From an uncultured bacterium (lineage in GTDB: Bacteria > Patescibacteriota > Minisyncoccia > Phycocordibacterales > UBA9973): a DNA stretch of 64,000 nt. Shown piece by piece: positions 3,553 to 62,226 of the stretch (positions are counted from its first letter, which is position 1; the number at the start of each line of letters is the position of its first letter). Below the pieces are notes generated by a model. The model saw only the letters and a list, made by a program, of their open reading frames with translations, was not told the origin of the DNA and did no database searches. The DNA is taken from the NCBI GenBank assembly GCA_903892035.1, contig CAITGV010000001.1, positions 226,711 through 290,710 of the forward strand. The letters run 5' to 3'. The translations under genes and the position numbers were made by a program.

Positions 3553-3557
3553 AATTT

Positions 3558-5408: not shown

Positions 5409-5676
5409 TATTTTCATGACACATCAATCTCAAATTCAGTTTCACAGTTCTGGCAAGCTTGTATCATACTCGTAATAGTATGGTAATTGTCACCTATCGT
5501 CAATCCGCGTGTAACACTAGCTAAATTTTCAGATTACGCAGTGAAACCTATACTAACAATACCGAGGGAGAGTATTGAGGTTTGGTAGTAATGATAGGAT
5601 TAGTTTAGTAATTTTAAATATATAAACTTACATAACATATTGACGGCCGTCGTTGTGTTATACTATATCTTATATT

Positions 5677-6202: not shown

Positions 6203-7192
6203 TTATTTTTCTCCTAGCGTATACCTATCGAGCAAGCATTCAAACATCAGCGGAGCGACGATGGTGGCGTCGGATTCGATGACAAATTTTGGAGTGTCTT
6301 TTGTAAGTTTGTCCCAAGTGATTTTTTCATTTGGTGTTGCGCCGGAGTATGAACCATACGAAGTTGTCGAATCACTTATCTGACAGAAGTAAGCCCATGG
6401 TTTTACTTCTTGCTCTAGATCGTATTTGATAGAAGGCACAACACAAATTGGAAAGTCTCCAGAAATCCCCCCACCAATTTGATAAAATCCACAACCAAAA
6501 CCTTCCGAAAGTTTTTTATAAACATCGTAAAGGTAAACCATATATTCAACTCCACTTTTTACAATTTTTGGATCAAGCTCTCCCCTTTTACAATATCCTG
6601 CAAAAATATTTCCAAGTGTCGAATCTTCCCAACCAGGCACAACCATTGGTAAATCTTTTTCTGCGGCTGCAAGCAACCAGCACTCCGCTGGGTCACCTTC
6701 ATATAAATCTTTCAATTCTCCAGAGCGTAAAAGTTTGTAAAAATATTCGTGAGGAAAATATCTCTCGCCTTTTTCTTGGGCTTCTTTCCAAAAACGTAAA
6801 ATGATTGCTTCAATTTTTCTAAATGCTTCTTCTTCTGGAATAGACATGTCGGTCACACGGCGGTGCCCAGCGTCCAATATTGCAACATCATCTTCTTCAC
6901 GAAAATATCGATAGTCTGGGAAATCTTTGTAGCTGTGATGTGCAACAAGACGAAAGACTGATTCTTCAAGGTTTGCACCAGTACAAGAAACAGCATGCAT
7001 TTTATTTGCGCGAATCATTGGTGCTAAAGTAATACCAAGTCGTGCAGAAGACATTGCTCCCGCCATAGCGAGGAACATTGTACCACCTTGGTCTAAATGT
7101 TTTTGATAAGCCAATGTCGCATCTTTAAAAGCGCGAGCATTGAAATGGAAAAAAGTATTCGAAACCCAATCAATAAAATTTTTATTTTTCAT
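6203..7192 (-). CDS. Deoxyhypusine synthase-like protein (DHS / homospermidine-synthase family)
   Basis: VSCTGANLEESVF aligns with the DHS NAD-binding core (TTAGGVEEDLIK-like). Size 329 aa and GGGISGD motif fit the DHS family. Confidence 0.55.
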   Translation of the reverse strand: MKNKNFIDWVSNTFFHFNARAFKDATLAYQKHLDQGGTMFLAMAGAMSSARLGITLAPMIRANKMHAVSCTGANLEESVFRLVAHHSYKDFPDYRYFREEDDVAILDAGHRRVTDMSIPEEEAFRKIEAIILRFWKEAQEKGERYFPHEYFYKLLRSGELKDLYEGDPAECWLLAAAEKDLPMVVPGWEDSTLGNIFAGYCKRGELDPKIVKSGVEYMVYLYDVYKKLSEGFGCGFYQIGGGISGDFPICVVPSIKYDLEQEVKPWAYFCQISDSTTSYGSYSGATPNEKITWDKLTKDTPKFVIESDATIVAPLMFECLLDRYTLGEK

Positions 7193-10784: not shown

Positions 10785-12323
10785 GTGAGCCAAAAACAAC
10801 AAAGTCTAATAGACATAAATACACAAAATATACCAGAATACGTTACACGTGTAACTGAAACGCTTGAAAAAGCCGGTTTTGAAGCGTACCTGGTGGGAGG
10901 CAGTGTTCGAGATCTTATCATTGATAGAAAACCAAAAGACTGGGACGTGACAACAAATGCTACACCAGAACAAATCATTCCTCTATTTATAAAAACTATT
11001 TACGAAAACAAGTTCGGTACAGTTGCCGTGGTTTTTGAGGGAAATAGTGAAAACAATAGTGTTACACATGAAACAAACATCGTAGAAGTGACCCCATACC
11101 GCCTTGAAACACAATATAGTGACCATAGACACCCCGACGAGGTTAAATTCAGCTCTAAGCTCGAAGACGACCTTAAGAGACGTGATTTCACCATTAACGC
11201 CATTGCAATGGACTCTAAAGGACATGTCATTGACCTTTATAAAGGACAACAAGATATAAAGGACAAGGTAATCAGAACAGTAGGGGATGCAAACGAAAGA
11301 TTTAATGAAGATGCACTCCGAATGCTCCGCGCTGTGCGATTTTCAGTTCAGCTTGGATTTACAATTTCGCATGAAACAACACTTGGAGTTATCCACAATG
11401 CAGAACTTATCAAAAAAGTTTCTTCGGAAAGAATTCGAGATGAATTCATAAAAATAATTAATTCACCTGAGCCAATGATTGGAATTGGAATGCTGCAGAA
11501 ATTTGGTTTATTAAAATACATAATTCCAGAACTTGAAGAGGGAATTGGCTGTGAGCAAGGTGGAGCACATAAGTACAATGTATTTGAACATTTACTTCAA
11601 GCACTTCAACACGCAGCAGATAAAAATTGGTCACTTGAAATTCGCATCGCTGCACTTTTTCATGATATTGGTAAACCACGTTCTCGTCGGGCGGGACTAA
11701 AAAAAGCATATACATTTTACGGCCACGAAGTTATCGGTGCACGCATGGCACAAAAAATAATGGAGCGTTTAAAATTTTCAAATGAAACTACAGATTTTGT
11801 TGTAAAACTCGTGCGCTATCATATGTTTTTTTCTGACACAGAAGCAATTACTCTTTCTGCGGTGCGTAGAACTATTGTTAACATTGGCCCCGCCGACGCG
11901 AAAGCTTTTGCAGGTGAAAAAGAAAATCATCCTATTTGGGATTTAATGAGAATTCGTGAGTGCGACCGTGTCGGTATGGCAAAAAAAGAAGCACCTTACC
12001 GTCTTCGAAAATATCATGCAATGATCGAAGAATGTTTGCGTGATCCCATATCAGTATCTGCTCTCAAAGTTGATGGAAATATTTTAATGAAAGAATTAAA
12101 TATTAAGCCTGGTCCGCGAATGGGTTGGATTTTAAATTCACTTCTAGAAGAAGTGCTTGATGGTCCAAATAAAAATACTCGCGAATATCTCGACGCGCGA
12201 GTAGGGGAACTTGATAAACTTTCCGACACCGACCTAAAATCTCTCGGTGAAAAAGCCAAAGAAACAAAACAAGAAATCGAAAATCTCGAAATAAAAAAAC
12301 TCCACAAAAAACACGGAGTATAA
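10785..12323 (+). CDS. cca: tRNA nucleotidyltransferase (CCA-adding enzyme) with C-terminal HD domain
   Basis: Pol-beta NTase motif YLVGGSVRDL...DWDV, later RF.....G, HD motif HDIGKP and HEV..A. The ORF-track start at 10734 overlaps tRNA-Gly. In-frame GTG at 10785 is the first plausible start after the tRNA, so the start is uncertain. Confidence 0.7.
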   Translation: MSQKQQSLIDINTQNIPEYVTRVTETLEKAGFEAYLVGGSVRDLIIDRKPKDWDVTTNATPEQIIPLFIKTIYENKFGTVAVVFEGNSENNSVTHETNIVEVTPYRLETQYSDHRHPDEVKFSSKLEDDLKRRDFTINAIAMDSKGHVIDLYKGQQDIKDKVIRTVGDANERFNEDALRMLRAVRFSVQLGFTISHETTLGVIHNAELIKKVSSERIRDEFIKIINSPEPMIGIGMLQKFGLLKYIIPELEEGIGCEQGGAHKYNVFEHLLQALQHAADKNWSLEIRIAALFHDIGKPRSRRAGLKKAYTFYGHEVIGARMAQKIMERLKFSNETTDFVVKLVRYHMFFSDTEAITLSAVRRTIVNIGPADAKAFAGEKENHPIWDLMRIRECDRVGMAKKEAPYRLRKYHAMIEECLRDPISVSALKVDGNILMKELNIKPGPRMGWILNSLLEEVLDGPNKNTREYLDARVGELDKLSDTDLKSLGEKAKETKQEIENLEIKKLHKKHGV

Positions 12324-12336
12324 AATTGGACAAAAA

Positions 12337-12378
12337 AATAAAGCCTCTGTATTTCTACTAGGGCTTTATTTCTTATTT
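12337..12378. terminator. Bidirectional terminator between convergent cca and hypothetical gene
   Basis: AAAGCCTCTGTATTTCTACTAGGGCTTTATTT hairpin with flanking A/T runs. Confidence 0.5.
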
Positions 12379-12388
12379 GGAATTCCTA

Positions 12389-12859
12389 CTAATTGCAGGA
12401 AATTCCTGTTAGCTCATGCCATCTAATGGCACACACAGTTGAAAGTACTTTACTCGAGCGACAAACTTTTGCCACATCATAAAGTCCTTCTACAGATTTG
12501 GTTTCGAGTATCTCTTCCACAACACCCAAACTCCAAACCTCGTACTGCGCCAGTTGGTGCAATTTGCTGTATTCTGATGTTAACTCGTATCTTATATTTC
12601 TTACTGTTTTATTTAAATGACAATCGTCTGTAGTCACTTCAACAATACGGTTCAATATATAAAATACGGCATCACATCTTTTAACAACTTCATCAACATC
12701 ATCAGATGCATTCAATTCCTCAAAATAATATCTGAAATGCACCAACATAAATTGTGCATATACTAGTAAATCATGAGGATCAGAACTTTTTAAGAAAAGT
12801 TCAAAAACCTTAGTTGGGAATTTTTTATAATTCTCCAACAATAATAACAATTCGTTCAT
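12389..12859 (-). CDS. Hypothetical protein
   Basis: 156-aa ORF with no recognisable motif. Acidic, Leu-rich. Confidence 0.4.
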   Translation of the reverse strand: MNELLLLLENYKKFPTKVFELFLKSSDPHDLLVYAQFMLVHFRYYFEELNASDDVDEVVKRCDAVFYILNRIVEVTTDDCHLNKTVRNIRYELTSEYSKLHQLAQYEVWSLGVVEEILETKSVEGLYDVAKVCRSSKVLSTVCAIRWHELTGISCN

Positions 12860-13740: not shown

Positions 13741-14655
13741 TTAATTCTTTTTATCGTGAAACTTTTTGTGTACATCTCTTAACTGTTTGTCTGTAATGTG
13801 TGTATAAATTTGTGTTGTAGAAATATTAGCATGTCCAAGCATCATCTGCACACTACGAATGTCTGCACCATTTGAAAGCAAGTCGGTCGCAAAACTGTGC
13901 CGCAAAACGTGTGGGGTAACTTTTTTTGAAATTCCCGCTTTTATTGCGTAGTATTTTACAATTCTCTCTATGGAGCGAGGGGTGAGGCGAGCAGAGCCAC
14001 TTTGTTTTTTTGAAAGTTGGGCAAATAGTGGTTCATGCATATCCTTGCGAGCTTTTAAATATTCACGCAAAGCCATCTTTGCATCTTCTGAAAGAAAAAC
14101 AACACGAACTTTTTCTCCTTTTCCGCGGATTGAAAATTCATCTTTCGATAAATCTAAATCACGATTAAGAGAACAAAGTTCTGAAAGACGTAAGCCAGTT
14201 GAGAAAAAAAGTTCAAGTAATGCTCGATCGCGAAGTCCTTTTAAATTATTTGTATCAGGAGCACTTATAAGTCTACCGAGTTCGCCAGCAGAAACTAAAT
14301 CCAAACTTCTTTCTTTTACTTTTGCCAATTCGATGTGGTCAGGGGAGAGTGCTTTCATTCCACGCTTCATCATATATTTCAAAAAACCTCGAAGCGCAAT
14401 GAGGTGATAATTTTGTGTATTTTTTTTCAAACTCGCAGAAGTTTGACCTTTTACTTTCGCTCCAGCTTGTCGATTTAAATATAAACGAAATTCTCGAATT
14501 GAATCTTCTGAAATATCACCCTCATTTCCAATTTTTCCAAATTCAAAGTAGCGCGAAAGATAGCGATCGTAATTTTCGACAGTTTTTAGACTATTTCCTT
14601 TTTCAATTTCGACATATTCGAGGAATTCACGCTTAAGTTTTTGAATATCAGGCAT
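13741..14655 (-). CDS. xerC: Tyrosine site-specific recombinase XerC/XerD family
   Basis: C-terminal catalytic motifs TPHVLRHSFATDLL, GHANISTTQIYTH (R-H-R-Y tetrad context). Confidence 0.85.
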   Translation of the reverse strand: MPDIQKLKREFLEYVEIEKGNSLKTVENYDRYLSRYFEFGKIGNEGDISEDSIREFRLYLNRQAGAKVKGQTSASLKKNTQNYHLIALRGFLKYMMKRGMKALSPDHIELAKVKERSLDLVSAGELGRLISAPDTNNLKGLRDRALLELFFSTGLRLSELCSLNRDLDLSKDEFSIRGKGEKVRVVFLSEDAKMALREYLKARKDMHEPLFAQLSKKQSGSARLTPRSIERIVKYYAIKAGISKKVTPHVLRHSFATDLLSNGADIRSVQMMLGHANISTTQIYTHITDKQLRDVHKKFHDKKN

Positions 14656-22034: not shown

Positions 22035-24401
22035 ATGGCAACAAGAAAAACTCCAGGGTCAATGTCAAGTACAGGTGGCCCAGAAAAATTAAAATATAGT
22101 GTGAAGGCAGAAAGTAGTGGTCCAATTATTAATTTTAATCCTGTTATAAATAATAATCCTGAAAATACCAACAATATAAATATTGGTACAACAGGTACCC
22201 CAACGCCACCAACTCCGGCTGGTACTCCACCCGTTACACCAGTAACTCCTGGAACTACACCCCCAGCCCCAACTCCACCTGCTACTCCAACAACACCTGG
22301 TACAACTCCACCAACTCCGGCTAGTACTCCACCCGTTACACCAATAACTCCTGGAACTACACCCCCAGCCCCAACTACACCTGTAACTCCGGGAACTCCA
22401 CCTCCACCACCAGCTGCACCTCGAATGCCAACTGCGACATTTGAAACAGCTTTTCATAATGCTCGCGCAGATTATCTTGCAGCATTTGCTGCCGTTGTAG
22501 CTGCACGCCAAGCAGACGAACGTGCAAAACCAAAAGGTGTTATCGGTTGGATAAAAAATAAATTAACAAGTGAAAAAGTAGCAACAGGTCCTGCAAATGA
22601 CCCTGTTCTTGAAAGACAATTAGTAATTGCAGAACAAACATACAACAATGCAAAATACCAATACTACAACTCACAAATATTAGACGAAAAAGAAAGACTC
22701 GAAGGGTCAGTTTTACCCGGAGTACCAGGCCCACAATTTACTCCTGCTGAAATTGAATCACAAATGATGGTTTTTAAGCGTGACTTTGCAATGATTGATA
22801 TTGAAAACGAATTAAATGCTGTTCAGGCTGCAAAAGAAAGTGCAATGCCACCACTTCGAAAAACCCTACTCAGACAATCTCTTGAAAGTTACAACAACTG
22901 GCAACCAACAACACTAAAAGGAAAAATTGCAAAAAAAGCTCTCGCAATTGGATTAGCTACAGCAATTGCAATTCCAGCTGGAGGACTAATTTCTGCTGGA
23001 CTTGGTGCTGCAGGAGGAGCACTTGGAGTTTCCTGGCTCACTGGAACATTTAGTGGTGGAGTTGCTCATGCCCTCACAGGAAAAGCACTACTATATAGAT
23101 CGGGAATGGCACTCGGCGGTACAGCAGTCCTAGGTGGAATTGCTGAAAAATTAAATAAAGATAATTCTAAACATACTGCGATTGTTGAACGTGCTCAAAA
23201 TCGTGGAGAGTTAGCATTAGCACAAAATTTTGATCAAAACGTTTTGCAAAACTTCGAAGCACGTTACGCAGGAATTTCCGCAAAACAAAGAGAGACAGAA
23301 AAATCAAAACGTAAGCAAAATATGTGGCTAAGAATTGGATTGGGAACTCTTGCTTCTGCTGGAGCATCATTTTTGGCACCACATGAAAACATTCCTACAG
23401 ATGCTGTCACTGGAAACCATGCTGGTGGAGTTCCATATGATCCAAACTATTCTCACAGACTTGGACTTGATCCTTGGAACAATACTCCCGACTACACAAC
23501 TCACGCAATTCCTGTGAGTTCAATGGGTTTCAATACTACAATGGAACAACTTCAACATCAGTTTCAAGTTGATCATCCTGGAGTTGCATTACCACCAGAA
23601 CTTCAAGGAAGTGGCGCGGAAATTGCGCAAAGAATGGGAATGTTTCGCCCTGGAGCTACAGATGGAATGGAAAGTGGAGTAGTGCCTGCGGGTTCAACAA
23701 TCAGTATTGATAATCATGGAAATATGATTTTGCACAATTCTGTAAATGGCCAGGATGAAATAATAAATAAAGGCGCTCCATTTCACGATAAATTCTTCCA
23801 CTACACCGGCAACGACGCTCATGAAGTAGCTGGCAATGGAACAGTAGACAACACACCCCAAGGTGGTCTTGCTGAAAATGGAAACGTGGAGACAAACACA
23901 CAGGGTGATTTGTCTGGTAGTGCTACAAGTGCTACAGAATCTGCGACGAGCACAGCTTCATCTGGTTTCGCAGAAACATATTCAGGAATTGGTTCACACC
24001 CTGTTTACACTTCTTCAATGTTTTCAGGTTTTGCAACACCTGAAGCAAAAGCAGATTTTGGTTTCAAGGCTTTTATTGACAATGTTTACGGAGAACACGA
24101 CGCAACAGGACATTTATCTACAACTGGTTTCGAAACAGACGGTGGAAAAATGGCACTAGGTGGAGATTATCGTCCTGGTGAATTAATAAATGAAACAACA
24201 AGAGATGGAAACGTACTTGAAATCGATGGTAGCGATACACACGCTCAAGCATTTGTAAAAGGTCTACAGAAACTTTCAGAACTATCTGGAATTTATCCAA
24301 CAGCAACTGACTCAATGATGGATACAAAAACTTTCATTGAAGTTGCAATGTCAAAAATAAAAGAAGAAGATCTTATAAACGTCGTGAATTTGAAATATTA
24401 A
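22035..24401 (+). CDS. Hypothetical large protein with Pro/Thr-rich tandem repeat and Gly/Ala-rich hydrophobic segment
   Basis: 788-aa ORF. N-terminal PTPPTPAGTPP...repeat (two 34-aa units), then a glycine-zipper-like hydrophobic region. No known catalytic motif seen. Confidence 0.5.
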   Translation: MATRKTPGSMSSTGGPEKLKYSVKAESSGPIINFNPVINNNPENTNNINIGTTGTPTPPTPAGTPPVTPVTPGTTPPAPTPPATPTTPGTTPPTPASTPPVTPITPGTTPPAPTTPVTPGTPPPPPAAPRMPTATFETAFHNARADYLAAFAAVVAARQADERAKPKGVIGWIKNKLTSEKVATGPANDPVLERQLVIAEQTYNNAKYQYYNSQILDEKERLEGSVLPGVPGPQFTPAEIESQMMVFKRDFAMIDIENELNAVQAAKESAMPPLRKTLLRQSLESYNNWQPTTLKGKIAKKALAIGLATAIAIPAGGLISAGLGAAGGALGVSWLTGTFSGGVAHALTGKALLYRSGMALGGTAVLGGIAEKLNKDNSKHTAIVERAQNRGELALAQNFDQNVLQNFEARYAGISAKQRETEKSKRKQNMWLRIGLGTLASAGASFLAPHENIPTDAVTGNHAGGVPYDPNYSHRLGLDPWNNTPDYTTHAIPVSSMGFNTTMEQLQHQFQVDHPGVALPPELQGSGAEIAQRMGMFRPGATDGMESGVVPAGSTISIDNHGNMILHNSVNGQDEIINKGAPFHDKFFHYTGNDAHEVAGNGTVDNTPQGGLAENGNVETNTQGDLSGSATSATESATSTASSGFAETYSGIGSHPVYTSSMFSGFATPEAKADFGFKAFIDNVYGEHDATGHLSTTGFETDGGKMALGGDYRPGELINETTRDGNVLEIDGSDTHAQAFVKGLQKLSELSGIYPTATDSMMDTKTFIEVAMSKIKEEDLINVVNLKY
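22207..22410 (+). repeat. Tandem direct repeat (2 x 102 bp) inside CDS, encoding Pro/Thr-rich units
   Basis: ccaccaactccggct(g/a)gtactccacccgttacacca(g/a)taactcctggaactacacccccagccccaact repeated with period 102 nt. Confidence 0.7.
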
Positions 24402-36828: not shown

Positions 36829-38667
36829 ATGAGCATAATAGACGATTTGTTTGGAAAAAAAAATACGAAGGTTGGAACAGACAAACAAGTCCTGCCTGTT
36901 TTGCCGTCTGAAATTTACGAAGCAGCAACTCTAGACTTCCAAGACATCATAGCTCCCTCTGCTTTGCGTGTTGAACCAAAAGCACTAAATCTTGGAGAAA
37001 AATTGGCGCGCACTTATTTTGTCATTTCTTACCCTCGATATCTTACAGACAATTGGTTTTCACCAATCATCAATCTCGATAAAATTTTTGATGTTTCAAT
37101 TTTTATTCACCCGATAGATACAGCAGTAGTATTAAGGCAATTTCAAAAAAAAGTTGCCGAAGTTCAAAGCCAAATAAACGAACGTTCAAAAAAGGGTCTG
37201 GTGCGCGACCCAATGCTCGACACTGCATACCAAGACTTGGAAGGCCTGCGCAACAATTTAATGCAAGCTCAAGAAAAAATGTTTGACGTCGGACTCTACA
37301 TCACAATGTATGCTGACAATGAAAATGAACTTTTCAAAATTGAAAACGAAATCAAATCAATTTTAGAATCTCGCCTAGTATATTTTAAACCAGCTCTCTT
37401 CCAGCAAGAAGAAGCTTTCAAGAGCGTAATGCCGACTGGCACCGACCTCCTAAATATTCACCAAAAATTAAATTCTGAACCACTCTCATCAATTTTTCCT
37501 TTCGTTTCTTTTGACCTCACTTCGGATAAAGGAATTCTTTACGGCGTGAATCGCCACAATTCTAGTCTTGTTATTTTTGATCGTTTCTCTTTGGAAAATT
37601 ACAACTCTATCACTTTTGCAAAATCTGGTTCTGGAAAATCATACGCTACAAAATTGGAAATCATTCGTACATTAATGTTTGATACAGAGGTAATAGTTAT
37701 CGACCCCGAGCGTGAATACGAATACCTTGCAGAAGCCATCGGTGGAAGATATTTCAATATCTCTCTTTCTTCAGATCACCATATCAACCCTTTTGATTTG
37801 CCAATACCAAGAAGTGATGAAAATCCTGCGGACATTTTGCGTTCAAATATCATAAACCTCGTCGGTCTTTTCCGTATTATGCTCGGAGGCTTAACTCCTG
37901 AAGAAGATTCAATTATCGATCGCGCAATCAGTGAAACTTACGCGCTTAAAGATATTTCAGCAGAATCAGATTTTTCAAATATCGAGCCACCACTTTTGTC
38001 TGATTTCGAAATGGTTCTATCTGGAATGGAGGGGAGTGAGTCTATTATTCAACGTCTTACAAAATACACTCGTGGCACGTGGTCTACTTTCATAAACCAG
38101 CCTTCAAATGTGGATATAAATCGTAAATTTGTCGTTTTCTCTGTACGTGATATGGAAGACGAGCTAAAACCAGTGGCAATGTACATAGTCACTCACTTTA
38201 TCTGGAATGCTGTTCGCAAAAACTTAAAAAAGAGGCTTCTTGTTGTGGATGAGGCATGGTGGATGATGAAATCTGACGACACAGCCTCTTTCCTTTACTC
38301 AATTGCAAAACGAGGCCGTAAATATTTCCTTGGTCTTGCGACAATTACCCAAGACGTCGGCGACTTTATGAAAAGCCCGTACGGTGTGCCAATTGTCACA
38401 AACTCTTCAATTCAAATGCTTTTAAAACAATCACCTTCGACTATCGACCTACTACAAAAGACCTTTAACCTTACAGATGAAGAAAAATATCTACTCCTTG
38501 AGTCAAATGTGGGGGAGGGCATATTCTTTGCGGGACTCAAACACGTTGCAATTAAAATTATTTCATCATATACGGAAGACCAAATTATTACTTCCGACCC
38601 ATCGCAGGTTTTAGCAATAAAAAAAGCAAAGGATGATTTGGCGGCAAGTGAATCTGGGCAGAAATAA
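36829..38667 (+). CDS. VirB4-family conjugation/T4SS ATPase, core and C-terminal ATPase domain
   Basis: RTYFVISYPR (VirB4 middle-domain motif), Walker A ITFAKSGSGKSYA, Walker B LLVVDEAWWMM. Confidence 0.8.
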   Translation: MSIIDDLFGKKNTKVGTDKQVLPVLPSEIYEAATLDFQDIIAPSALRVEPKALNLGEKLARTYFVISYPRYLTDNWFSPIINLDKIFDVSIFIHPIDTAVVLRQFQKKVAEVQSQINERSKKGLVRDPMLDTAYQDLEGLRNNLMQAQEKMFDVGLYITMYADNENELFKIENEIKSILESRLVYFKPALFQQEEAFKSVMPTGTDLLNIHQKLNSEPLSSIFPFVSFDLTSDKGILYGVNRHNSSLVIFDRFSLENYNSITFAKSGSGKSYATKLEIIRTLMFDTEVIVIDPEREYEYLAEAIGGRYFNISLSSDHHINPFDLPIPRSDENPADILRSNIINLVGLFRIMLGGLTPEEDSIIDRAISETYALKDISAESDFSNIEPPLLSDFEMVLSGMEGSESIIQRLTKYTRGTWSTFINQPSNVDINRKFVVFSVRDMEDELKPVAMYIVTHFIWNAVRKNLKKRLLVVDEAWWMMKSDDTASFLYSIAKRGRKYFLGLATITQDVGDFMKSPYGVPIVTNSSIQMLLKQSPSTIDLLQKTFNLTDEEKYLLLESNVGEGIFFAGLKHVAIKIISSYTEDQIITSDPSQVLAIKKAKDDLAASESGQK

Positions 38668-38672
38668 AAATT

Positions 38673-38738
38673 ATACCACCCCCGATTCGATTACGAATCT
38701 CCCCCTCCTAAATTAGGAGGGGGTAAAGGGGGTGGTAT
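38673..38738. repeat. GC-rich nested-hairpin repeat element copy 3
   Basis: ATACCACCCCCGATTCGATTACGAATCTCCCCCTCCTAAATTAGGAGGGGGTAAAGGGGGTGGTAT. Same orientation as copy 1. Starts 6 nt after the VirB4 stop. Confidence 0.8.
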
Positions 38739-38768: not shown

Positions 38769-39752
38769 ATGAAAAGAATTTTATTTTCTTTCTTGATATT
38801 GGCTATATTTATGCCTTTTTCTCTGGCTCTTGCTGCTGGTCAAGTTTCAGCTTCAAGTATAAACGTCGCAATCAATCCTGAAGTTCCAGGACCAAATACA
38901 AATACTTCAATAACACTTTCGAGCTATGCGACAGACATAAATCGTGCATTAATCTCCTGGACACTAGACGGGAAGACGATGCAGTCTGGTATTGGAAAAA
39001 CAATTTTTTCTTTCACTACAAAAGGCGTAGGAACAGCCACAACAGTTACGGTAAATATAAGTATTGATTTACAACCCGCAATTACAAAAACAATAGTCAT
39101 TACTCCCGCAGATGTAGATATGCTTTGGGAAGCTATCGATTCATATGTGCCACCTTTCTACAAAGGTAAAGCCATGCCAAGCTCTGAAGCAAAAATAAAG
39201 GTCACAGCAATGCCCAATATAAAAGGCGCAAACGGAGTAAAAATAAAATCTTCAGATATGGTTTACAATTGGAAACACAATTACGACAACGATCCAAACG
39301 GTTCTGGTTACGGAAAAGATTCCTACATAGTAAATGCAAATTATTTAAATAATTCTGAAATTGTTGATTTGAGTGTTTCGTCAGTAAGCAATTCTAGTGC
39401 AGCATCGGGTAGGGCAGTGCTCGTGACTGGGGACCCTAAAATTGTTTTTTATCAAAAGGATCCACTTGAAGGAATAAAGTATGAAAATGCTTTAAAAACT
39501 GATTTAAATCTCTCAACAGATGAGACAACCTTGGTCGCAGAACCATATTTCTTTTCACCCGCTGATATAAATTCTTCAAAATATAAATACACATGGAACA
39601 TAAATGGTAGCGCAGTGGACACTCCAGCAAAAAAGAATGTGATGACTCTTCGAAAAGGACCAACTGGAGGAACTGCAAATATTTCTCTAGAAATCGAAAA
39701 CGTATTAAAATTATTCCAAGACGCAAAGCAGAATTTAAACATTAACTTCTAA
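38769..39752 (+). CDS. Secreted hypothetical protein (signal peptide, Ser/Thr/Asn-rich)
   Basis: Signal peptide MKRILFSFLILAIFMPFSLALAAG. Predicted beta-rich extracellular protein within the T4SS-like cluster. Confidence 0.45.
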   Translation: MKRILFSFLILAIFMPFSLALAAGQVSASSINVAINPEVPGPNTNTSITLSSYATDINRALISWTLDGKTMQSGIGKTIFSFTTKGVGTATTVTVNISIDLQPAITKTIVITPADVDMLWEAIDSYVPPFYKGKAMPSSEAKIKVTAMPNIKGANGVKIKSSDMVYNWKHNYDNDPNGSGYGKDSYIVNANYLNNSEIVDLSVSSVSNSSAASGRAVLVTGDPKIVFYQKDPLEGIKYENALKTDLNLSTDETTLVAEPYFFSPADINSSKYKYTWNINGSAVDTPAKKNVMTLRKGPTGGTANISLEIENVLKLFQDAKQNLNINF

Positions 39753-41890
39753 TGAAAATGAATAAAAAAATTAAAATAATTTTTCTATCCGCCTTATTGA
39801 TAATCACCGGATTTTTTGCAATCAAAGCAAGCGCTGCAACACCAGCAGGTTTTACAGGAACAACAGTAGCTGACGGCTCTACTTTATATAAATATGACTC
39901 AACTTGTGCAGTTGGTGCTGGAATATTCAAAAAACAACGCGGAATAATTGTCCCAACCAATGCAACGTCTGTATCAAAAGGTTACATATATTTCCATGGA
40001 TTAAACACATCCACAAACCCAACATCAGACTACATGTGTACTACTTCAGGACTTTGTGCTTCAGCAAAAGCTGAAAATTCAGTCATTTTTACACCTGAAA
40101 CAAATGTTACGGGACAGACTGCTCAAACAGTAGGATACAAAGATGAATTTGATTGTTTCATACAGGAAGCAAAAACAAAACTTCAATCACTTCATATTGG
40201 TGTTCCAAATACAATTGATATTGCAGGTCACAGTGCAGGAGCAAAACTTGTAATGAATACAGTGAACCTTGCGCCAGGGTTTTCCACAAGTAGTAGGGTG
40301 GACGCAATTATTTTTGATGGTTGCTATGGAAATTGGTGTAATCAAATTATTGCCTCGCCCCACACAAATCATGTATATCTTTACTATCAAACTCAAGATA
40401 CAGACGGTACTGGTCCACTTTCAATTGCCGCATATAATACAAATAAAACAAAAGCAAGTATTTTAAAAGTTGAGGCTGGACACTATAGAATTCCTGCAAA
40501 ATGTTTTATGGACCACATAAATGGAGATAAGTGTGGTGCTCCTGAAGTTCCTTCAGACCAAGGTTACAACGTAGATGTAAAACAGGTTGCGGGAACGGTG
40601 GCAAATTCTTCAAAAATTACGGTCACATATAGCGGTTTTACTGAAACAACTCCAGCTAGAATAAATATGGAATATGCAAGTGCTGCAGAAAATGACAGCC
40701 CAGCACAAAGTGCAACAATATCCATGACCGCAAGTTCAAGTCCTCAAACAATAGAAAAAACTTTTAGTAACCTTACAGACCAAACAGAATATAGAATTAC
40801 GGTTACAGAAGATAAATCGTTCGACGACCCTAGTAGATTATCGTATAGTGACCCTGTAACTTTTACTCAATCAACTGTAATAAATGGCAACGGGGATAAC
40901 AAACTTGATTGTAGTGATCCAAAAAATACAGACAATCAGGATTGTAAATGTACAACAGGGTATTGTTTACTTCAACCAATTGCGGGATTAAAAACTATTC
41001 CAGATAGTACATCAATTTCTACATATTTAAATATAATGTTTAAAATTGGTATTGGTCTAGCAGCTGTCCTTGCTGTGATAATGATCGTCATCGGTGGAAT
41101 ACAATATATGTCCACAGATGCAATATCTGGAAAAGAAGACGGCAAACACCGCATCAAGGGCGCTCTCACTGGCCTCATCCTCGCTCTCGGTGCATGGGCA
41201 CTTCTAAACACAATCAACCCCGACCTCGTCCTCATAAAACTCGACCTCAAAAGCGCACAAGTTAAGATAGACACCTCAAGTGTCGACGTACCAGCAACTA
41301 ATCTAACCACAGGCTCTCCTGTTTGTGGTGGTAAATACAAAGTTGGAGACGTATGGCAAGCAGATGATGTTATTAGAAAAAAATACACTGATACTTTTGG
41401 AAGCAGTTCAGTTAATGTTGGAAATTGTAAAACAGTTGGACAACATTCTTGTACCAGTCTTGCAGGGCTTCCAGATAGCACATACTCAGGTATGAAAAAA
41501 TTAGAAGATGCAATAATTAGTGCTCAAGTTAATATTCTACCTGGACCATCTTGTAAGGATTACACTTGTCTAGAAATCACAGGAGGTACTGAATGTTGGG
41601 ACCATGGGAACAGTCAAAGTACGCACATACCAGGAAGTGATGTTGTTGATTTGCTTAATAGTAACCAGTTAAATCAATTTTTAACAACTTTTGCAAATGG
41701 ATCAAATAATAATAAAGGATATACAAGAACTATAGGTCAATTTGGTTTAACACCAAATGCAACTCTCTATGTTTATCAATGGGGAGGAACAGGTAATGAT
41801 TATTTATCTATAGTTCACGAAACAGTACCAGACCATTTTCATGTTTTAAGTTGGATGGGACCACCACCGGCACAGTGGCCAAAACAATAA
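39752..41890 (+). CDS. Secreted multidomain protein: alpha/beta-hydrolase-like (GHSAG) N-domain + VirB2-pilin-like TM hairpin + Cys-rich C-domain
   Basis: Signal peptide. Nucleophile-elbow motif DIAGHSAGAKLV. Two hydrophobic helices separated by a short charged loop (IGIGLAAVLAVIMIVIGGIQYM-STDAISGKEDGKHRIKG-ALTGLILALGAWALLNTI), as in VirB2/TrbC pilins. C-terminal ~200 aa has 10 Cys. Confidence 0.5.
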   Translation: MKMNKKIKIIFLSALLIITGFFAIKASAATPAGFTGTTVADGSTLYKYDSTCAVGAGIFKKQRGIIVPTNATSVSKGYIYFHGLNTSTNPTSDYMCTTSGLCASAKAENSVIFTPETNVTGQTAQTVGYKDEFDCFIQEAKTKLQSLHIGVPNTIDIAGHSAGAKLVMNTVNLAPGFSTSSRVDAIIFDGCYGNWCNQIIASPHTNHVYLYYQTQDTDGTGPLSIAAYNTNKTKASILKVEAGHYRIPAKCFMDHINGDKCGAPEVPSDQGYNVDVKQVAGTVANSSKITVTYSGFTETTPARINMEYASAAENDSPAQSATISMTASSSPQTIEKTFSNLTDQTEYRITVTEDKSFDDPSRLSYSDPVTFTQSTVINGNGDNKLDCSDPKNTDNQDCKCTTGYCLLQPIAGLKTIPDSTSISTYLNIMFKIGIGLAAVLAVIMIVIGGIQYMSTDAISGKEDGKHRIKGALTGLILALGAWALLNTINPDLVLIKLDLKSAQVKIDTSSVDVPATNLTTGSPVCGGKYKVGDVWQADDVIRKKYTDTFGSSSVNVGNCKTVGQHSCTSLAGLPDSTYSGMKKLEDAIISAQVNILPGPSCKDYTCLEITGGTECWDHGNSQSTHIPGSDVVDLLNSNQLNQFLTTFANGSNNNKGYTRTIGQFGLTPNATLYVYQWGGTGNDYLSIVHETVPDHFHVLSWMGPPPAQWPKQ

Positions 41891-41892
41891 TA

Positions 41893-41944
41893 TTTATGTC
41901 AAAACAAAAATTCATCTTCATAGTTTCAATGGTAATCGTCGGAT
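41893..41944 (+). repeat. 52-bp direct repeat, left copy (contains a 16-codon duplicate of the 5' end of the gene at 43211)
   Basis: Identical over 52 nt to 43208-43259. Encodes MSKQKFIFIVSMVIVG then a stop. Confidence 0.85.
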
Positions 41945-41946
41945 AG
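41896..41946 (+). pseudogene. Truncated duplicate of the N-terminus of the downstream beta-propeller membrane protein gene
   Basis: ATG at 41896. MSKQKFIFIVSMVIVG* is identical to the first 16 codons of the gene starting at 43211. Confidence 0.6.
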
Positions 41947-41988
41947 GGTTAGTGGGTTTAGACACTGATGATTTGTGCATACCTATAT

Positions 41989-42016
41989 TTGACAAAAAAT
42001 TGGTAGTTGCTATACT
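41989..42016 (+). promoter_or_regulatory. Strong sigma70-like promoter TTGACA-16-TATACT driving the DUF4143 ATPase gene
   Basis: Consensus -35 TTGACA (41989-41994) and TATACT (42011-42016), 8 nt upstream of the ATG at 42025. Confidence 0.55.
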
Positions 42017-42024
42017 AGTTTTAT

Positions 42025-43161
42025 ATGGAAAATTATATAAACCGGAGCTATAAAATAGAAGACCTAGTAATCGCAGGTAAAGTTCTTGTAGTATACGGTC
42101 CAAGAAGATCCGGTAAAACAACCTTAATAAAAAACTATACTGACAAATTAAAAACGAATTTTTTAGTAGATTCTGGAGACAATATCATAGTGCAAGAAAT
42201 TTTAAGTTCTGGTGATACAAATAGAATACTTGCCCGAGTTGAGGGATTATCTGTATATGTACTTGATGAAGCGCAAAATGTCGCGAACATTGGGCAGGCA
42301 CTTAAAATAATAATTGACGCAAGACCCGATCTGATAGTCATAGCTACAGGATCTTCCTCATTTGATCTAGCAAATAAATTAGGAGAACCATTGGTCGGTA
42401 GAAGAGAAATTGTTACACTATACCCCTTTGCACTTCAAGAACTAAATAAAAATTTTCCAAGAAACATACTTGATGATAATTTAAACTCTTTTCTTGTTTA
42501 TGGCCTTTACCCGCAGGTTTACAATTCAAAAACTAATTTCGAAAAGGAATCTCGTTTGCAAGAAATAGTGGAAGGATATTTGCTAAAAGATATTTTTGCT
42601 TTGGAACAAATAAAGTCACCTTCAAAATTGTTGCATTTAATTAAGCTACTTGCGCAATATATAGGCCAGCCGATAGCACTAAATAAACTAGCAGGAGAAG
42701 TTGGTCTCAATCAAAAAACAGTAGAAAGATATTTAGATCTTTTGGAAAAAACTTTTGTTATAAAAAAAATTATGCCTTTTTCAACAAAACTCAGCCAGAG
42801 CTTGAAATTTAAACCTAAATATTATTTTTACGATCTTGGTATTAGAAATTCATTGCTTGGAAATTTCCTACCTCCACCTGAAAGAGCTGATGTGGGTAGT
42901 CTATGGGAAAACTTTTGTTATATTGAAATAATTAAATTGAATGCTTACAAAAGAAAATCTCATCCTCAATATTTTTTCTATAAGTCATACCAAAATAATG
43001 ATGAAATTGATATAATTGAAGAATACAATGGGTACAAAGCCTTTGAGTGTAAGTGGAAATTTAGCAGAGATATGGTAAATATGGAAGAGTGGGACAATGC
43101 ATACCCAAACTCAAAAATTAAAGTGATAACAAGAGATAATTATTACGATTTTATTGTCTAG
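42025..43161 (+). CDS. AAA+ ATPase of the DUF4143/COG1373 family
   Basis: N-terminal P-loop VVYGPRRSGKTTLIKN, Walker B VYVLDEAQ, C-terminal region typical of DUF4143 ATPases. Confidence 0.7.
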   Translation: MENYINRSYKIEDLVIAGKVLVVYGPRRSGKTTLIKNYTDKLKTNFLVDSGDNIIVQEILSSGDTNRILARVEGLSVYVLDEAQNVANIGQALKIIIDARPDLIVIATGSSSFDLANKLGEPLVGRREIVTLYPFALQELNKNFPRNILDDNLNSFLVYGLYPQVYNSKTNFEKESRLQEIVEGYLLKDIFALEQIKSPSKLLHLIKLLAQYIGQPIALNKLAGEVGLNQKTVERYLDLLEKTFVIKKIMPFSTKLSQSLKFKPKYYFYDLGIRNSLLGNFLPPPERADVGSLWENFCYIEIIKLNAYKRKSHPQYFFYKSYQNNDEIDIIEEYNGYKAFECKWKFSRDMVNMEEWDNAYPNSKIKVITRDNYYDFIV

Positions 43162-43207
43162 AGATAGTAGTTTAATTTTATTTGCATTATAATGATACAA
43201 GCACACA

Positions 43208-43259
43208 TTTTATGTCAAAACAAAAATTCATCTTCATAGTTTCAATGGTAATCGTCGGA
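43208..43259 (+). repeat. 52-bp direct repeat, right copy (native 5' end of the downstream gene)
   Basis: Identical to 41893-41944. Confidence 0.85.
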
Positions 43260-44591
43260 TTGATTTTGGCATTTTGGATTGCCTCTGTTTTTATCACTAA
43301 ACAAAAAAGTGGGGGAGGACCAGTAACAATTCGAGATTTTTTTCCTATTTCAAATAGTCCAATTTCAAATACACCACCAGTAAACATAAATGGAAATGGT
43401 GAAACACTACCAACAGACAACGGTAATACAAACACTCCACCAAAATTCCGCCAAATTTCAAACTTTGCAGTAGCGGGTGCAACAGTTGTAGATGAAACAC
43501 CAGTGGCTCCTATTGTGGCAAAAACAAAGGTATCAAAAACAGTTCCAGCGACTCCTCCAATACCTCCAGTTTACGCTATACGCTACGTAGAACGCGCTAC
43601 AGGGCATTTATTTGAACAAATACTAGGAAGCTGGACTGAGAAAAAAGTTACGAATACGACGATTCCAAGCATTTACGAAGCAATGTTTGGAAATAATGGA
43701 AATTCTGCATTCTTGCGCTATTTAAATAGTGACAATCAAACAATTGAGAGTTTTTCTGGTTCAATTCCACTTCCAAAAGTACCAGCAAAAACTGCAAGTA
43801 CAACAGTTACGACTACAAATACTGCGACAGTAGCAAATGCTCTACCTATTGGAAATGATGTGGCAGAAACTCCAATACCAGAACTACTTGGTACATTTTT
43901 TCCTGAAAATATTTCAAGTGCAGTAGTATCTCCAGACGGAAGCAAAGTCTTTTATTTAAGTAGTTTTGGAGATCAAACTCTTGGTACATCAGCAAATCTC
44001 GACGGTACTAAAAAATCTCAATTCTTTACATCGAGTTTTAGTGAGTGGATTCCACAGTGGCCAACAGCTCGCATAATGACAATAACAACAAAAGCTTCTG
44101 CAAGCGTCCCAGGTTTTGTTTATACCCTAGACACACAAACAGGAGATATGAATAAAATTATTGGAGGACTTAAGGGGCTCACAACGCTTACAAGCAGTGA
44201 TGGAAAAAATATGCTTTACAGTGTATCAAATGGTAAAGATTTTTCACTTTATTCATATTCACTCAAAACAAATACAACAACAAATTTAAATATAAAAACA
44301 CTTCCAGAGAAGTGTGTGTGGTCAAGTGACAATATTACAGTTTACTGTGGTGTTCCAGTAAGTCCCGACGCTGGTGCTTACCCAGATGTATGGTACCAAG
44401 GTCTTACATCTTTCAATGACCAAATTTGGAAAATAAATACAGCTACAAGTGAGTTCAATATGATTGGTGACCCAAATTCCGATGTAAATGTATCGATGGA
44501 TGCGACAAAATTAATTCTCGACAAAACAGAGAGTAACCTATTTATAGTAAACAAAAAAGATTCTAAATTGTGGAGTCTAGCTCTACAGTAA
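43211..44591 (+). CDS. Membrane-anchored protein with predicted beta-propeller (TolB-like) periplasmic domain
   Basis: Start at the ATG of MSKQKFIF (the ORF-track start at 43182 is upstream of the repeat). N-terminal TM, Pro-rich linker, repeated SPDGSKVFY / SSDGKNMLYS motifs as in TolB/WD40-like propeller blades. Confidence 0.5.
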
Positions 44592-59721: not shown

Positions 59722-62226
59722 ATGAAAAATTTTATGAAAAAATTTATAATGGTTTCCTTTTTTGCTTTAGCACTATTTTGTGCAAAGGCAACTTTTGCGT
59801 CGGCAAGTTTCAATACTGAGTATAATGATTTGCCAACTGTTCAGGTTTCAAATTATACTCAGCACCCAGGGTGTTCTACTTGTTGGGCACCGACAGTATC
59901 TGCAAATCCCGGAGATGTTGTAGCTGTCGAAGTGTATTACCATAATACAAGTCCAACTGTTGCATCATCGACTCATATATATATGTCACCACAAACAACT
60001 GGCGCAGTTTCATCTCAAACCTTCTCAGGTTCCGTCGGTGGTGTTTCAGGTTCTGCGGTTGTTTCACTTTCCTCATCCGTTACATTAAATTATATTTCTG
60101 GTTCGACTGTGTGGTATGCAGATCAAAACATGAGTTCACCCGCTGGACTTTTAAATGGACAAAATGGCAGTGAACTATTTTCTGGTGGATTAAATATTGG
60201 TGACATTGGCGGTGAAAATTCTTGCCCAAATAGTAATATTTTTTGTCATCAAGGAATTGTAATTGCACATTTTCAAGCGGGAAACGTGCAACAACAAGCA
60301 CAGTGTACAATAAATTCTTTCACAGCAAATCCTAGTAACATTACAGCAGGAAATATTACTTCTTTACAATGGAGTACAACAAACTGTTTAAATGTTAATC
60401 TCTCTGGTTTTGGAAATGTTGCGCCGTCTGGCAATCAGCAAACTGGTGCCCTTTATAATTCAAATTCTTACACTCTAAGTGCGACAGGAAATAACGGTAA
60501 TCCTTCGCAGACAGTATATGTGACAGTAAATCAGCAACAGCAAAATCCTTGTGTGATAAATTCTTTTTCAGCGAGTCCAACTTCAGTGACTTCTGGTGGT
60601 TCGACAATTTTAAATTGGTCAACATCAAATTGTACTAGTGCGTCAATTTCAGGAATTGGTTCAGTGGCAGTAACAGGAAGTCAGTCAACAGGCGCAATAT
60701 ACGGAACAATGAATTACACTCTTAGTGCATATGGAACAAATGGTAATCCATCTCAAACAATAACAGTCACAAGTCAGCAACAGCAAAATAATTGTTTTAT
60801 AAATTCATTTTCCGCAAATCCAACTTCAGTGGCTAATGGAGGCTATTCTACACTTTCATGGTCAACATCTGGATGTACTAGTGTTTCAATTTCAAATATT
60901 GGAAGTGTTTCAAATTCAAGTTCTCAATCAATTGGTCCAGTTTATGGAACAATGACTTACACACTTTCTGCTTATGGAAATTCAAATGGTGTTGTAACAC
61001 AAACAGTTAGTGTCTTTGCAAGTCAGCAACAGCAAAATAATTGTTACATAAATTCATTTTATGCATCACCTACAAGTGTCTCTTCGGGTTTACCTGTGAC
61101 ACTAAATTGGTCTACAAATTACGGAGGAAATGGCACGCTGACAAGTACAAATGGATATTATTCATCTGTATCTAGTACAGGATCACAAACTTTTTATCCA
61201 ACAGCAACTACTACATATACATTGAATATGAATTGTTCAAATTACAATTCGTACAATAGTTCTCCTGCGAGTCAGTCAATAACTGTGACAGTAAATCCAG
61301 TTTATGTGGCACCTGTTACAGCAACAGTATCAACATTGCTTGCAAACGGTATCACTCAAACATCAGCCCGACTCAACGGTCTTGTGATAAATAATCAAGG
61401 TACTTCTGTAACAGCACATTTTGAATATGGAACTACTACAAGTTATGGCTATGTGACCAGCAATCAAAGCATTGGTAGCGCGTCATCAATTTCATTTGCA
61501 GATACTGCTTCAAACTTAACACCAGCAACAAGTTATTTTTTCCGAGCAGTTGCTCAAACAGGAAATGGAACAGTTTATGGTGACCCGGTATTTTTCCGAA
61601 CACTTTCAAATAGTGTGCCAACTCCAGTAATTGTGCGATATGTAAATACATATACAGGAGGTGGACCTGAATCACTTTTGTCTCTTACTGTTACTACACC
61701 TTTCTCAACTGTTTATGCGGGAGACAGTGTGAATGATGTCATCACATACACAAACATTTCTTCTCAAAATCTTACAAATGCAATATTGCGTGTAGAACTT
61801 CCAAAAGATTTTACTTTTGTAAATAGTTCAGCGGGAAGTTACTCTTCATCTGACAATGCTGTGATTTTACAACTAGGAACATTGGTTCCAAAACAAACTG
61901 GCACAGTGACAGTACAAAGTAGAGTGTCAGGTAATGCAAAAGATAAAGATGCACTAGTTACAGCAGCCAATGTCGCATTTACAGATAGAAATACTGCACA
62001 GCAAGATGCTTTGGCTTATGCAATCCATAATTTCTCAACTGGTACAAATGGAAACAATCAAGCAGCTGCAGCATTTATGGCTGGATTTTTACCAACAACA
62101 TTGTTGGGGTGGTTAATATTAATAATTATAATTTTAGTTCTAATATATTTTGGACGCAGAGTATATGGAACAACAACAACTTCAAGTCGCACTACAACAA
62201 CTCACACCCCACCACCAAGTCACTAA
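59722..62226 (+). CDS. Cell-surface protein with four tandem Ig-like repeat domains, DUF11/CARDB-like region and C-terminal TM anchor
   Basis: Signal peptide. 4 x ~85-aa repeats (C.INSF.A.PTSV..GG...L.WST..C.S.SISGIGSV...SQS.G..YGTM.YTLSAYG). C-terminal LLGWLILIIIILVLIYFG TM then an Arg/Thr tail. Confidence 0.55.
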   Translation: MKNFMKKFIMVSFFALALFCAKATFASASFNTEYNDLPTVQVSNYTQHPGCSTCWAPTVSANPGDVVAVEVYYHNTSPTVASSTHIYMSPQTTGAVSSQTFSGSVGGVSGSAVVSLSSSVTLNYISGSTVWYADQNMSSPAGLLNGQNGSELFSGGLNIGDIGGENSCPNSNIFCHQGIVIAHFQAGNVQQQAQCTINSFTANPSNITAGNITSLQWSTTNCLNVNLSGFGNVAPSGNQQTGALYNSNSYTLSATGNNGNPSQTVYVTVNQQQQNPCVINSFSASPTSVTSGGSTILNWSTSNCTSASISGIGSVAVTGSQSTGAIYGTMNYTLSAYGTNGNPSQTITVTSQQQQNNCFINSFSANPTSVANGGYSTLSWSTSGCTSVSISNIGSVSNSSSQSIGPVYGTMTYTLSAYGNSNGVVTQTVSVFASQQQQNNCYINSFYASPTSVSSGLPVTLNWSTNYGGNGTLTSTNGYYSSVSSTGSQTFYPTATTTYTLNMNCSNYNSYNSSPASQSITVTVNPVYVAPVTATVSTLLANGITQTSARLNGLVINNQGTSVTAHFEYGTTTSYGYVTSNQSIGSASSISFADTASNLTPATSYFFRAVAQTGNGTVYGDPVFFRTLSNSVPTPVIVRYVNTYTGGGPESLLSLTVTTPFSTVYAGDSVNDVITYTNISSQNLTNAILRVELPKDFTFVNSSAGSYSSSDNAVILQLGTLVPKQTGTVTVQSRVSGNAKDKDALVTAANVAFTDRNTAQQDALAYAIHNFSTGTNGNNQAAAAFMAGFLPTTLLGWLILIIIILVLIYFGRRVYGTTTTSSRTTTTHTPPPSH
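60290..61130 (+). repeat. Four tandem ~255-bp coding repeats (Ig-like domain units)
   Basis: Recurrent caacagcaaaat...ataaattcattttc... nucleotide blocks, each beginning with CAGCAACAGCAAAAT. Confidence 0.6.

Follow-up and report, generated by a model that had tools for sequence, protein, structure and literature searches.

A solitary PDC-S01 ATPase-nuclease gene between 52-bp direct repeats in a Patescibacteriota chromosome, compared with insertion with long target duplication

For restriction-modification (RM) gene units, insertion with long target duplication was reportedly described by Nobusato et al. in 2000, and streptococcal work on cis-mobilisable elements (CIMEs) and integrative and conjugative elements (ICEs) is said to have found tandem accretion at the att sites of integrative elements. 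In the RM class, long and variable duplications (>30 bp) of unique host sequence flank units that carry no mobility gene, the inserted unit may be a solitary mcrA nuclease gene, and the authors propose a link to DNA breakage, with the repeats later allowing amplification (Furuta, Abe & Kobayashi 2010, PMC2853133). Variable duplications of 19–26 bp have also been described for IS1630, an insertion sequence (IS) of the IS30 family (cited in PMC2853133). Across bacteria and archaea PDC-S01 is counted as one of the most abundant, though unvalidated, defence candidates (PMC12988326; PMC13356809), and its genes (COG1373; AAA_14 plus DUF4143) have been described as candidate defence genes ‘embedded’ inside the operons of other systems (Payne et al. 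2024 preprint; PMC12988326). The literature that we searched held no report of PDC-S01 cassette boundaries, flanking duplications or mode of spread. Here we analyse one such gene in a 64,000-nt stretch of the chromosome of an uncultured Patescibacteriota bacterium (assembly GCA_903892035.1, contig CAITGV010000001.1, positions 226,711 to 290,710; hereafter the window), where a 1,264-bp segment holding the gene lies between perfect 52-bp direct repeats. We consider it probable that this segment is a self-contained mobile cassette, recently inserted by insertion with long target duplication and without a recombinase.

The duplicated target and the inserted gene

The two copies of the repeat, at 41893..41944 and 43209..43260 on the + strand, are in direct orientation and identical at 52/52 positions by pairwise comparison, and the bases that precede them differ (A at 41892 on the left, T at 43208 on the right). 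With up to 3 mismatches allowed, the repeat occurs in 2 copies in the whole window; no such pair was found in 100 shuffles of the window, and the analytic chance expectation for a 52-mer repeat is ∼5e-21. In its right copy the repeat serves as the functional 5′ end of the downstream gene, an open reading frame (ORF) of 459 codons from ATG 43212 (MSKQKFIFIVSMVIVGLILAF...). The left copy holds a stub of the same gene, which begins at ATG 41896, a 5-nt spacer away from the TAA stop of the upstream gene (41888–41890), and runs for 16 codons (MSKQKFIFIVSMVIVG) to a TAG at 41944–41946 that arises at the junction. The downstream gene is intact on the right and a dead stub on the left because the 52 duplicated nucleotides include its start. 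The segment is an insertion with a 52-bp duplication of its target, and a recent one.

The cassette itself (1,264 bp, 41945..43208, + strand) is bounded by the repeat copies and consists of an 80-nt leader, one ORF of 378 codons and a 47-nt trailer, with a GC content of 31.5% against 36.3% for the window (5th percentile of windows). Searches of the insert by ORF and domain gave no integrase, transposase or other mobility gene, there are no terminal inverted repeats at its ends, an Rfam search of it matched no family and no structured RNA, and no terminator-like site was detected in it. No tRNA lies at the 52-bp repeat, which is the 5′ end of a protein gene. A classical IS or transposon was rejected on the lack of a transposase domain and of inverted repeats, on the variable duplications of 20–182 nt among relatives and on unconserved ends, and an integron gene cassette was rejected as well, the insert having only a weak inverted repeat (27 nt, 70% complementary, at 43114–43179) and the window no IntI-like gene. 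An earlier reading of the window, made from the sequence alone (hereafter the original prediction), had taken the right copy for the true 5′ end of a membrane-protein gene, the left for a 16-codon stub, and the insert for a promoter and an ATPase gene with no transposase or integrase; all of this agrees with the ORF that starts at ATG 43212, the stub and its junction TAG, the one real ORF behind a TTGACA-16-TATACT promoter, and insert domains that are those of an ATPase and a nuclease only. Its 52/52 identity also stands, with the right copy, given as 43208–43259, moved up by 1 nt and the insert size of 1263 bp replaced by the measured 1,264 bp.

The gene (42025..43161, + strand) encodes a 378-aa ATPase-nuclease with AAA_14, winged-helix and DUF4143 (PD-(D/E)XK) parts, the PADLOC candidate defence gene PDC-S01. 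AAA_14 (PF13173) covers residues 19–140 (E=2.7e-24), DUF4143 (PF13635) covers residues 188–344 (E=7.6e-33), and the PDC-S01 profile (PDLC04789) matches at full length, residues 9–377 against profile positions 8–373 of 375 (E=2.6e-116). DUF4143 is catalogued as a PD-(D/E)XK nuclease family (PMC3424549). Since the catalytic motifs are invariant in an alignment of 30 homologues, namely Walker A GPRRSGKTT, Walker B DE (81–82) and the C-terminal D...E-C-K (D329, E341 and K343), it is plausible that the protein is active as an enzyme. Its AlphaFold model is confident (pLDDT 90.9) and has as structure matches, in descending order, STAND/NLR proteins, Orc/Cdc6, and MuB and TnsC; a PDB sequence search gave matches at P-loop level only.

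The cassette promoter, TTGACA-16-TATACT (41989..42016, + strand), matches the consensus at 11/12 positions with a TG preceding, and its end lies 8 nt before ATG 42025, so that the mRNA would be leaderless or nearly so. Among 8 aligned loci of the window subfamily, only ∼45 nt 5′ of the ATG are conserved and comprise a TAC...GTA palindrome around the −35 hexamer together with the −10 hexamer 8 nt from the ATG; the palindrome is a likely operator. Leaders of the same leaderless type, with the −10 hexamer 7–8 nt from the ATG, are seen in the cassettes of L037, L051, L063, L069 and L144. The palindromes or repeats that overlap the −35 are subfamily-specific, with TAC..GTA in the window subfamily and CTCCATAAAT/ATTTATGGAG elsewhere, and they are probably operators for the protein's own winged helix.

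We also asked of the arrangement whether it could be an assembly artefact, in which the shared 52-mer led the assembler to thread a strain mixture or a circular molecule wrongly. For k<52 the de Bruijn graph of A-R-B-R-C (R being the repeat and B the insert) equals that of A-R-C plus a circle R-B, and the k=31 Logan unitigs (L002 and L004), which stop 30 nt into the repeat as expected of a true 52-nt repeat, are uninformative here. A MEGAHIT contig assembled at k=141 from another sample (L001), however, spans repeat, ATPase gene, repeat and downstream gene and is 100% identical to the window over 11,267 nt. In an index look-up the ATPase gene was found on contigs of 0.2–1 Mb in six collection blocks, the displayed places sharing the same gene order, and the diverged repeats at other loci of the family cannot arise by mis-assembly. 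The structure, for which the original prediction had raised the question of an artefact, is real, and we give mis-assembly next to no chance.

The same target is occupied a second time in sample ERZ27313596. A contig from this sample (L003) is 99.99% identical to the window and matches it up to 41933, or up to 41937 with 1 mismatch; it leaves the window sequence after ...TTTCAATGGT and enters unrelated sequence with a complete GOLLD RNA (RF02032) at 12315–12717 (293 bits, E ∼1e-84). The RNA starts ∼170 nt inside the element, the insertion point corresponds to window position 41934, and the contig then ends. L001 begins with the right end of the element, 511 nt (2–511) with the C-terminal coding sequence of a hydrolase-like protein X; TAA-T-ATG comes next, and after it the contig is 100% identical to the window from 41895 on. 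The GOLLD partner element is thereby seen as 655 nt and 511 nt at contig ends. Protein X and the C-terminal domain of the pilin-hydrolase in the window share 30% identity, and gene X has no other detectable homologue. On the simplest reading the allele in ERZ27313596 runs pilin gene, core, [GOLLD ... X], core, ATPase gene, repeat, downstream gene, and the second insertion duplicated 39–45 nt of the same target, the re-duplicated 39-nt core lying at 41895..41933 (+ strand) within the left repeat of the window. The core 38-mer was not found in JGI metagenomes, and exact-pattern scans of IMG/VR gave no match to the att core, the GOLLD-side junction, the L003 end or the gene X end. The host genome of the GOLLD element is Patescibacteria-like, that is, of the candidate phyla radiation (CPR), in appearance.

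Cassette boundaries and flanking repeats among relatives

For comparison we took 80 loci each from species-representative genomes and JGI metagenomes, compared the cassettes all against all (gene ±1 kb), and analysed 150 loci (78 genome and 72 metagenome) for flanking repeats. The ATPase has many homologues at 70–78% identity, against ≤40% for the adjacent pilin-hydrolase, whose best homologue is 40% identical; the flanking genes are without close relatives in the homologue search. The closest ATPase relatives, in other CPR-type genomes, each lie in a different context, among them rplE|rpsN, TMEM175|exonuclease and photolyase|SNF2 helicase. These differing homologue counts and varied contexts mark the ATPase gene as foreign to its surroundings. 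Relatives that are 72–73% identical occupy the rplE|rpsN interval of the ribosomal protein operon (L006, L104–L108). A 50% identical DUF4143 gene (P0076; L092–L101) occurs in many samples in a different CPR operon that resembles a type IV secretion system (T4SS) operon, where it sits upstream of PrgI, TraC-like and VirB4 genes without flanking repeats.

The cassette is a discrete unit and has moved between species. In 11 locus pairs, several of them between different GTDB species, nucleotide identity of 85–95.5% is limited to the cassette (95.5% for L024/L121, 94.8% for L009/L010 and 92.3% for L042/L048), and the flanks within ±1 kb are otherwise unalignable. The homology of a pair starts 50–213 nt 5′ of the ATG and ends in most cases 0–12 nt past the stop, at most +64. 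Neither transposon ends nor a terminal motif nor short duplications were seen at the cassette edges, and these variable edges without a terminal motif argue for a moved unit made up of promoter and ORF, trimmed slightly differently from case to case, and against a transposon with fixed ends. A further pair, L013/L016, was dropped from this evidence, its flanks being shared and the locus the same. Recent intragenomic transposition was rejected since P0049 and P0076 occur on many contigs, always in one context each, and since paired ATPases at one locus are just 22–26% identical; the single contexts and the diverged pairs point to transfer between genomes, not active copy-and-paste. Relatives of the ATPase are carried by 138 plasmid records, and in 4 plasmid records examined there were no flanking repeats.

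Direct repeats bracket the ATPase gene at 17 distinct loci (13/78 genome and 4/72 metagenome loci, ∼11%), with lengths of 20–182 nt and identities of 85–100%; the boundaries of the imperfect repeats depend on BLAST extension. The left repeat ends 67–336 nt 5′ of the gene, the right one begins in most cases 3–47 nt past its stop, and the repeat-bounded units measure 1,238–1,540 nt in most of the 17 cases, ranging to 1,913 nt. The repeats are host sequence, different at each locus and often including a gene terminus, and their inner edges always enclose the cassette as defined by homology. At L069, where the geometry is that of the window, a 182-nt repeat duplicates the downstream ORF's 5′ end and has a stub as its left copy, the 134-nt repeat of L119 begins at the ATG of the downstream gene, and the 163-nt repeat of L011 ends at the stop of the upstream gene. 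Inspection of the repeat edges across loci showed no conserved nick or att motif. Further DUF4143 genes between duplicated host sequences, which the original prediction had proposed to look for, are thus present, and in many phyla.

As a control we used real ORFs of similar size, scoring an exact flanking repeat of at least 16 nt. Such a repeat was found at 10/70 ATPase genes and 6/213 other ORFs (p=0.001), and 3/6 positive control ORFs turned out to be further DUF4143 genes; after their reclassification the counts are 13/73 DUF4143-family genes and 3/210 other ORFs (p=2.7e-6). Long host-derived flanking repeats are enriched across the family. The remaining 3 control positives, with repeats of 18–55 nt, are a Fic protein, a PDDEXK_2 ‘transposase’ nuclease and a DUF6036 nucleotidyltransferase, all of them solitary genes of defence or toxin type. 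These non-ATPase ORFs with flanking repeats lie at L066 4521–5597 (−), L082 647–1525 (−) and L020 3266–4048 (+), and the same way of inserting may be used by more selfish genes than those of this family.

Several loci have more than one unit or an unusual target. L085 has four copies of a ∼68-nt repeat (5597–5664, 7103–7170, 10797–10864 and 12319–12386), which represent the 3′ termini of a pair of paralogous B12-radical-SAM genes; two ATPase cassettes, only 25% identical and one per strand, each lie between a stub and an intact copy, and two unrelated cassettes at paralogous targets imply that a homologous target was struck twice independently. A second DUF4143 gene, 22–26% identical to the first, is present at L041 (4542–5926 and 6001–7122) and at L013 (3538–5224 and 6001–7119), with its own 33–45-nt flanking repeat and either adjoining the first gene or within ∼1 kb of it; cassettes thus accrete side by side. 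At L128 a 1,674-nt unit with the ATPase gene and a 102-aa ORF lies between perfect 68-nt repeats (2803–2870 and 4477–4544), and no integrase lies between them.

Routes of insertion

In the reading that we favour, insertion with long target duplication, the cassette would have entered where a spacer of 5 nt separates the pilin-hydrolase gene from the membrane-protein gene. The target would have been opened by breaks on opposite strands 52 nt apart, the cassette joined in, and the gaps filled in such that 52 nt were copied on either side, with no site-specific recombinase or transposase taking part. The cassette's own nuclease, or damage from it, could plausibly provoke the break, and the repeats might later permit loop-out and re-entry via homologous recombination. 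The frequent position of repeat edges at gene termini in compact genomes is then explained by selection for insertions that spare the flanking gene. A more tentative and rather doubtful extension would have the AAA+-winged-helix-PD-(D/E)XK protein carry out the insertion, as the enzyme of a single-gene mobile element that belongs to a new class and needs no defined ends, making opposite-strand nicks whose spacing would be set by the length of an ATPase oligomer or filament and which would give duplications of 20–182 bp. If that were true, much of PDC-S01, the ‘fourth most common defence system’, would be a selfish mobile gene, and the 25-year-old ‘insertion with long target duplication’ would gain a tractable one-protein model.

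A number of observations weigh against the favoured reading. Some ∼85–90% of the loci have no flanking repeat, and the repeats of L065, L050 and L144 are terminator or REP-like hairpins, which may be multi-copy elements instead of duplications. Exact-protein look-ups of both flanking genes gave filled or GOLLD-filled alleles only and no empty site, none was found for other family loci either, and it is the geometry of stub and intact gene alone that points to a single-copy target state. The cassette edges differ among pairs that share one partner, with no conserved terminal sequence, and the notion of a cassette recognising its own ends is unsupported; no biochemical finding connects the protein with insertion. 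The 68-nt repeat of L128 is the 3′ part of a tRNA-Leu(taa), the classic att geometry of integrase-type elements, and the 39-nt core of the window was reused by the independent GOLLD element in ERZ27313596. Such reuse of one sequence, at the GOLLD core and at L085, is better matched by an att-like site than by staggered breaks at random, unless harmless insertions are limited to gene boundaries by selection.

The last of these points lead to site-specific integration, in which the repeats would be attL and attR and the cassette an integrase-less, cis-mobilisable mini-element moved in trans by an integrase of the GOLLD element (which may be a prophage), with tandem accretion. The three tandem core copies in ERZ27313596, the perfect tRNA-Leu repeat of L128, the tandem or repeated use of one target in L085 and L041, and the coincidence of repeat edges with gene starts or stops at several loci, as for elements that restore the end of their target gene, speak for this route. 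The insert, however, has no integrase, the only integrase-family gene of the window is an Xer-like tyrosine recombinase (13741–14655) 27 kb away, and no integrase is seen in the GOLLD element, whose contigs end. Near-identical cassettes also lie at unrelated sites in different species with repeats that differ per locus, and one site-specific system could not serve all of these sites unless each cassette had picked up a copy of its target beforehand. Among phages the ATPase is moreover rare, with a relative in just 14/50,697 phage records, a count on which the idea of phage cargo was rejected too. We regard site-specific integration as unlikely, yet as the main and a serious rival. The original prediction had offered a recent insertion that duplicated a long piece of target, or a site-specific or homology-mediated cassette; the recent insertion is borne out by the 52/52 repeats, and the reuse of the core by the GOLLD element keeps the site-specific alternative alive.

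Homology could also have captured the cassette, either by a Campbell-type single crossover at the 52 bp or by one-sided homology with an illegitimate join, from a circular or linear donor that carried the cassette and a piece of the downstream gene. The repeat starts 3 nt before the ATG, as expected if the donor cassette abutted a homologous gene, a cassette between repeats is able to leave as a loop together with one of them and to enter sibling genomes again by this route, and the imperfect repeats elsewhere (85–95%) could mirror the divergence of donor and recipient at insertion. This would account for spread within a population, not for first arrival at new loci; the cassette pairs have no homology whatever in their flanks, and a donor from the same locus would favour two-sided replacement, which is far more efficient and leaves no repeat. 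Capture by homology is, in our judgement, improbable as the origin of the arrangement. Still less credible, and very improbable, is that the cassette is the remnant of a larger island or prophage with 52-bp att repeats in which deletions spared one selected defence gene. Islands often carry defence genes, and in a sister population the same site does hold a larger element, but random decay would not repeatedly trim an island to promoter and ORF within a few nucleotides, and 100% identical repeats speak against a long history of decay. Insertion with long target duplication accordingly remains the reading that we hold to be probable.

Genomic setting and comparison with known systems

The upstream gene (39752..41890, + strand) encodes a T4SS pilin domain (PF18895 T4SS_pilin, 7.3e-07; NF045849, pilin-like conjugal transfer protein) and, fused to it at the C-terminus, a domain that resembles cell-wall hydrolases. 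In CPR homologues of this pilin the C-terminal hydrolase domain is swapped by lineage (NlpC/P60, SLT, YkuD, VanY, M23 and Peptidase_M15-like), which suggests that the pilin-hydrolase locus is itself fast-evolving and modular. The downstream gene (43212..44591, + strand) is an ORF for a membrane-anchored protein with weak Kelch_3 and TolB-propeller matches; the repeat encodes its N-terminus, MSKQK and a hydrophobic helix, which looks like a membrane anchor. Public gene calls start it at an internal ATG (43245, 448 aa) and lose the MSKQK n-region, the program-made ORF list starts it at TTG 43182 inside the insert, and the true start is likely ATG 43212 inside the repeat. PrgI, TraC-like, VirB4/TraG P-loop and T4SS-pilin genes flank the site, and the original prediction was right to place the insertion inside a T4SS-like operon. 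The surroundings are core chromosome, with jag, yidC, yidD, rnpA, rpmH, dnaA and dnaN beyond the operon as well as genes for RuvABC components, PNPase and UvrD.

The window has other repeats apart from the 52-bp pair. An 81-nt sequence with a CCCCCTCCTAAATTAGGAGGGGG hairpin is present in two copies (3536–3616 and 38651–38731, 86% identical), each running into the 3′ end of a gene on the + strand (VirB4 in one case), and looks like a terminator-like dispersed repeat. In-frame repeats with 102-nt units occur at 22188–22430 in a large ORF (22035–24401), and in-frame 72-nt blocks spaced ∼245 nt apart at 60528–61091 in the ORF of a DUF11 protein (59722–62226).

A discrete cassette of ∼1.25 kb that lands in essential or conserved operons, the T4SS-like operon here and the ribosomal protein operon elsewhere, often between long target duplications, gives a concrete account of PDC-S01 genes embedded in unrelated operons. 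It ties the PDC-S01 cassette to the insertion with long target duplication of RM genes and offers a much simpler, single-gene system for that mechanism. It also carries a warning for annotation, as the duplicated 5′ end gives rise to a stub ORF and the downstream gene receives a wrong start from gene callers.

Among the known systems, the cassette shares with embedded PDC-S01 genes the protein family and the position of a single gene within an unrelated operon. Like a CIME it is an integrase-less unit between direct repeats, and one sample has a larger tandem element with three repeat copies; unlike in a CIME, no integrase has been identified and the repeats are different host sequence at every family locus. 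Its target duplications are, as in IS1630, longer than usual and variable in length, but IS1630 has a DDE transposase and defined ends, whereas the cassette has neither transposase nor terminal inverted repeats and its family has duplications of up to 182 bp. Tn7 and Mu have as accessory proteins a PD-(D/E)XK nuclease (TnsA) and AAA+ target selectors (TnsC and MuB); the cassette differs from them in lacking a DDE strand-transferase partner, a 5-bp duplication and conserved ends of the transposon kind, and its likeness in structure to TnsC and MuB is at the generic AAA+ level, with archaeal AAA+ and STAND proteins scoring higher. The closest likeness is to the RM-unit class, in that a small nuclease-encoding selfish or defence unit lies within a long, variable direct duplication of host sequence (52 bp here, 20–182 bp in relatives), often overlapping the end of a flanking gene, and in that the repeats exceed 30 bp, the insert is under 20 kb and there is no mobility gene, as set out by Furuta et al. 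(2010). It differs from that class in its cargo, a single AAA+ ATPase-PD-(D/E)XK gene without a methyltransferase, in hosts that include Patescibacteria-like (CPR) genomes, and in the second element that uses the same core. Since the cargo is not an RM unit, the claim of strict membership in the RM class is lowered, and that of the same insertion route is not. The original prediction had spoken of a mobile solitary-ATPase cassette of unknown mechanism; mobile it is, across many phyla, but its class is not unprecedented, given the RM-unit insertions (PMC2853133), and the window cassette is a new cargo family, in new host phyla, for a known insertion signature.

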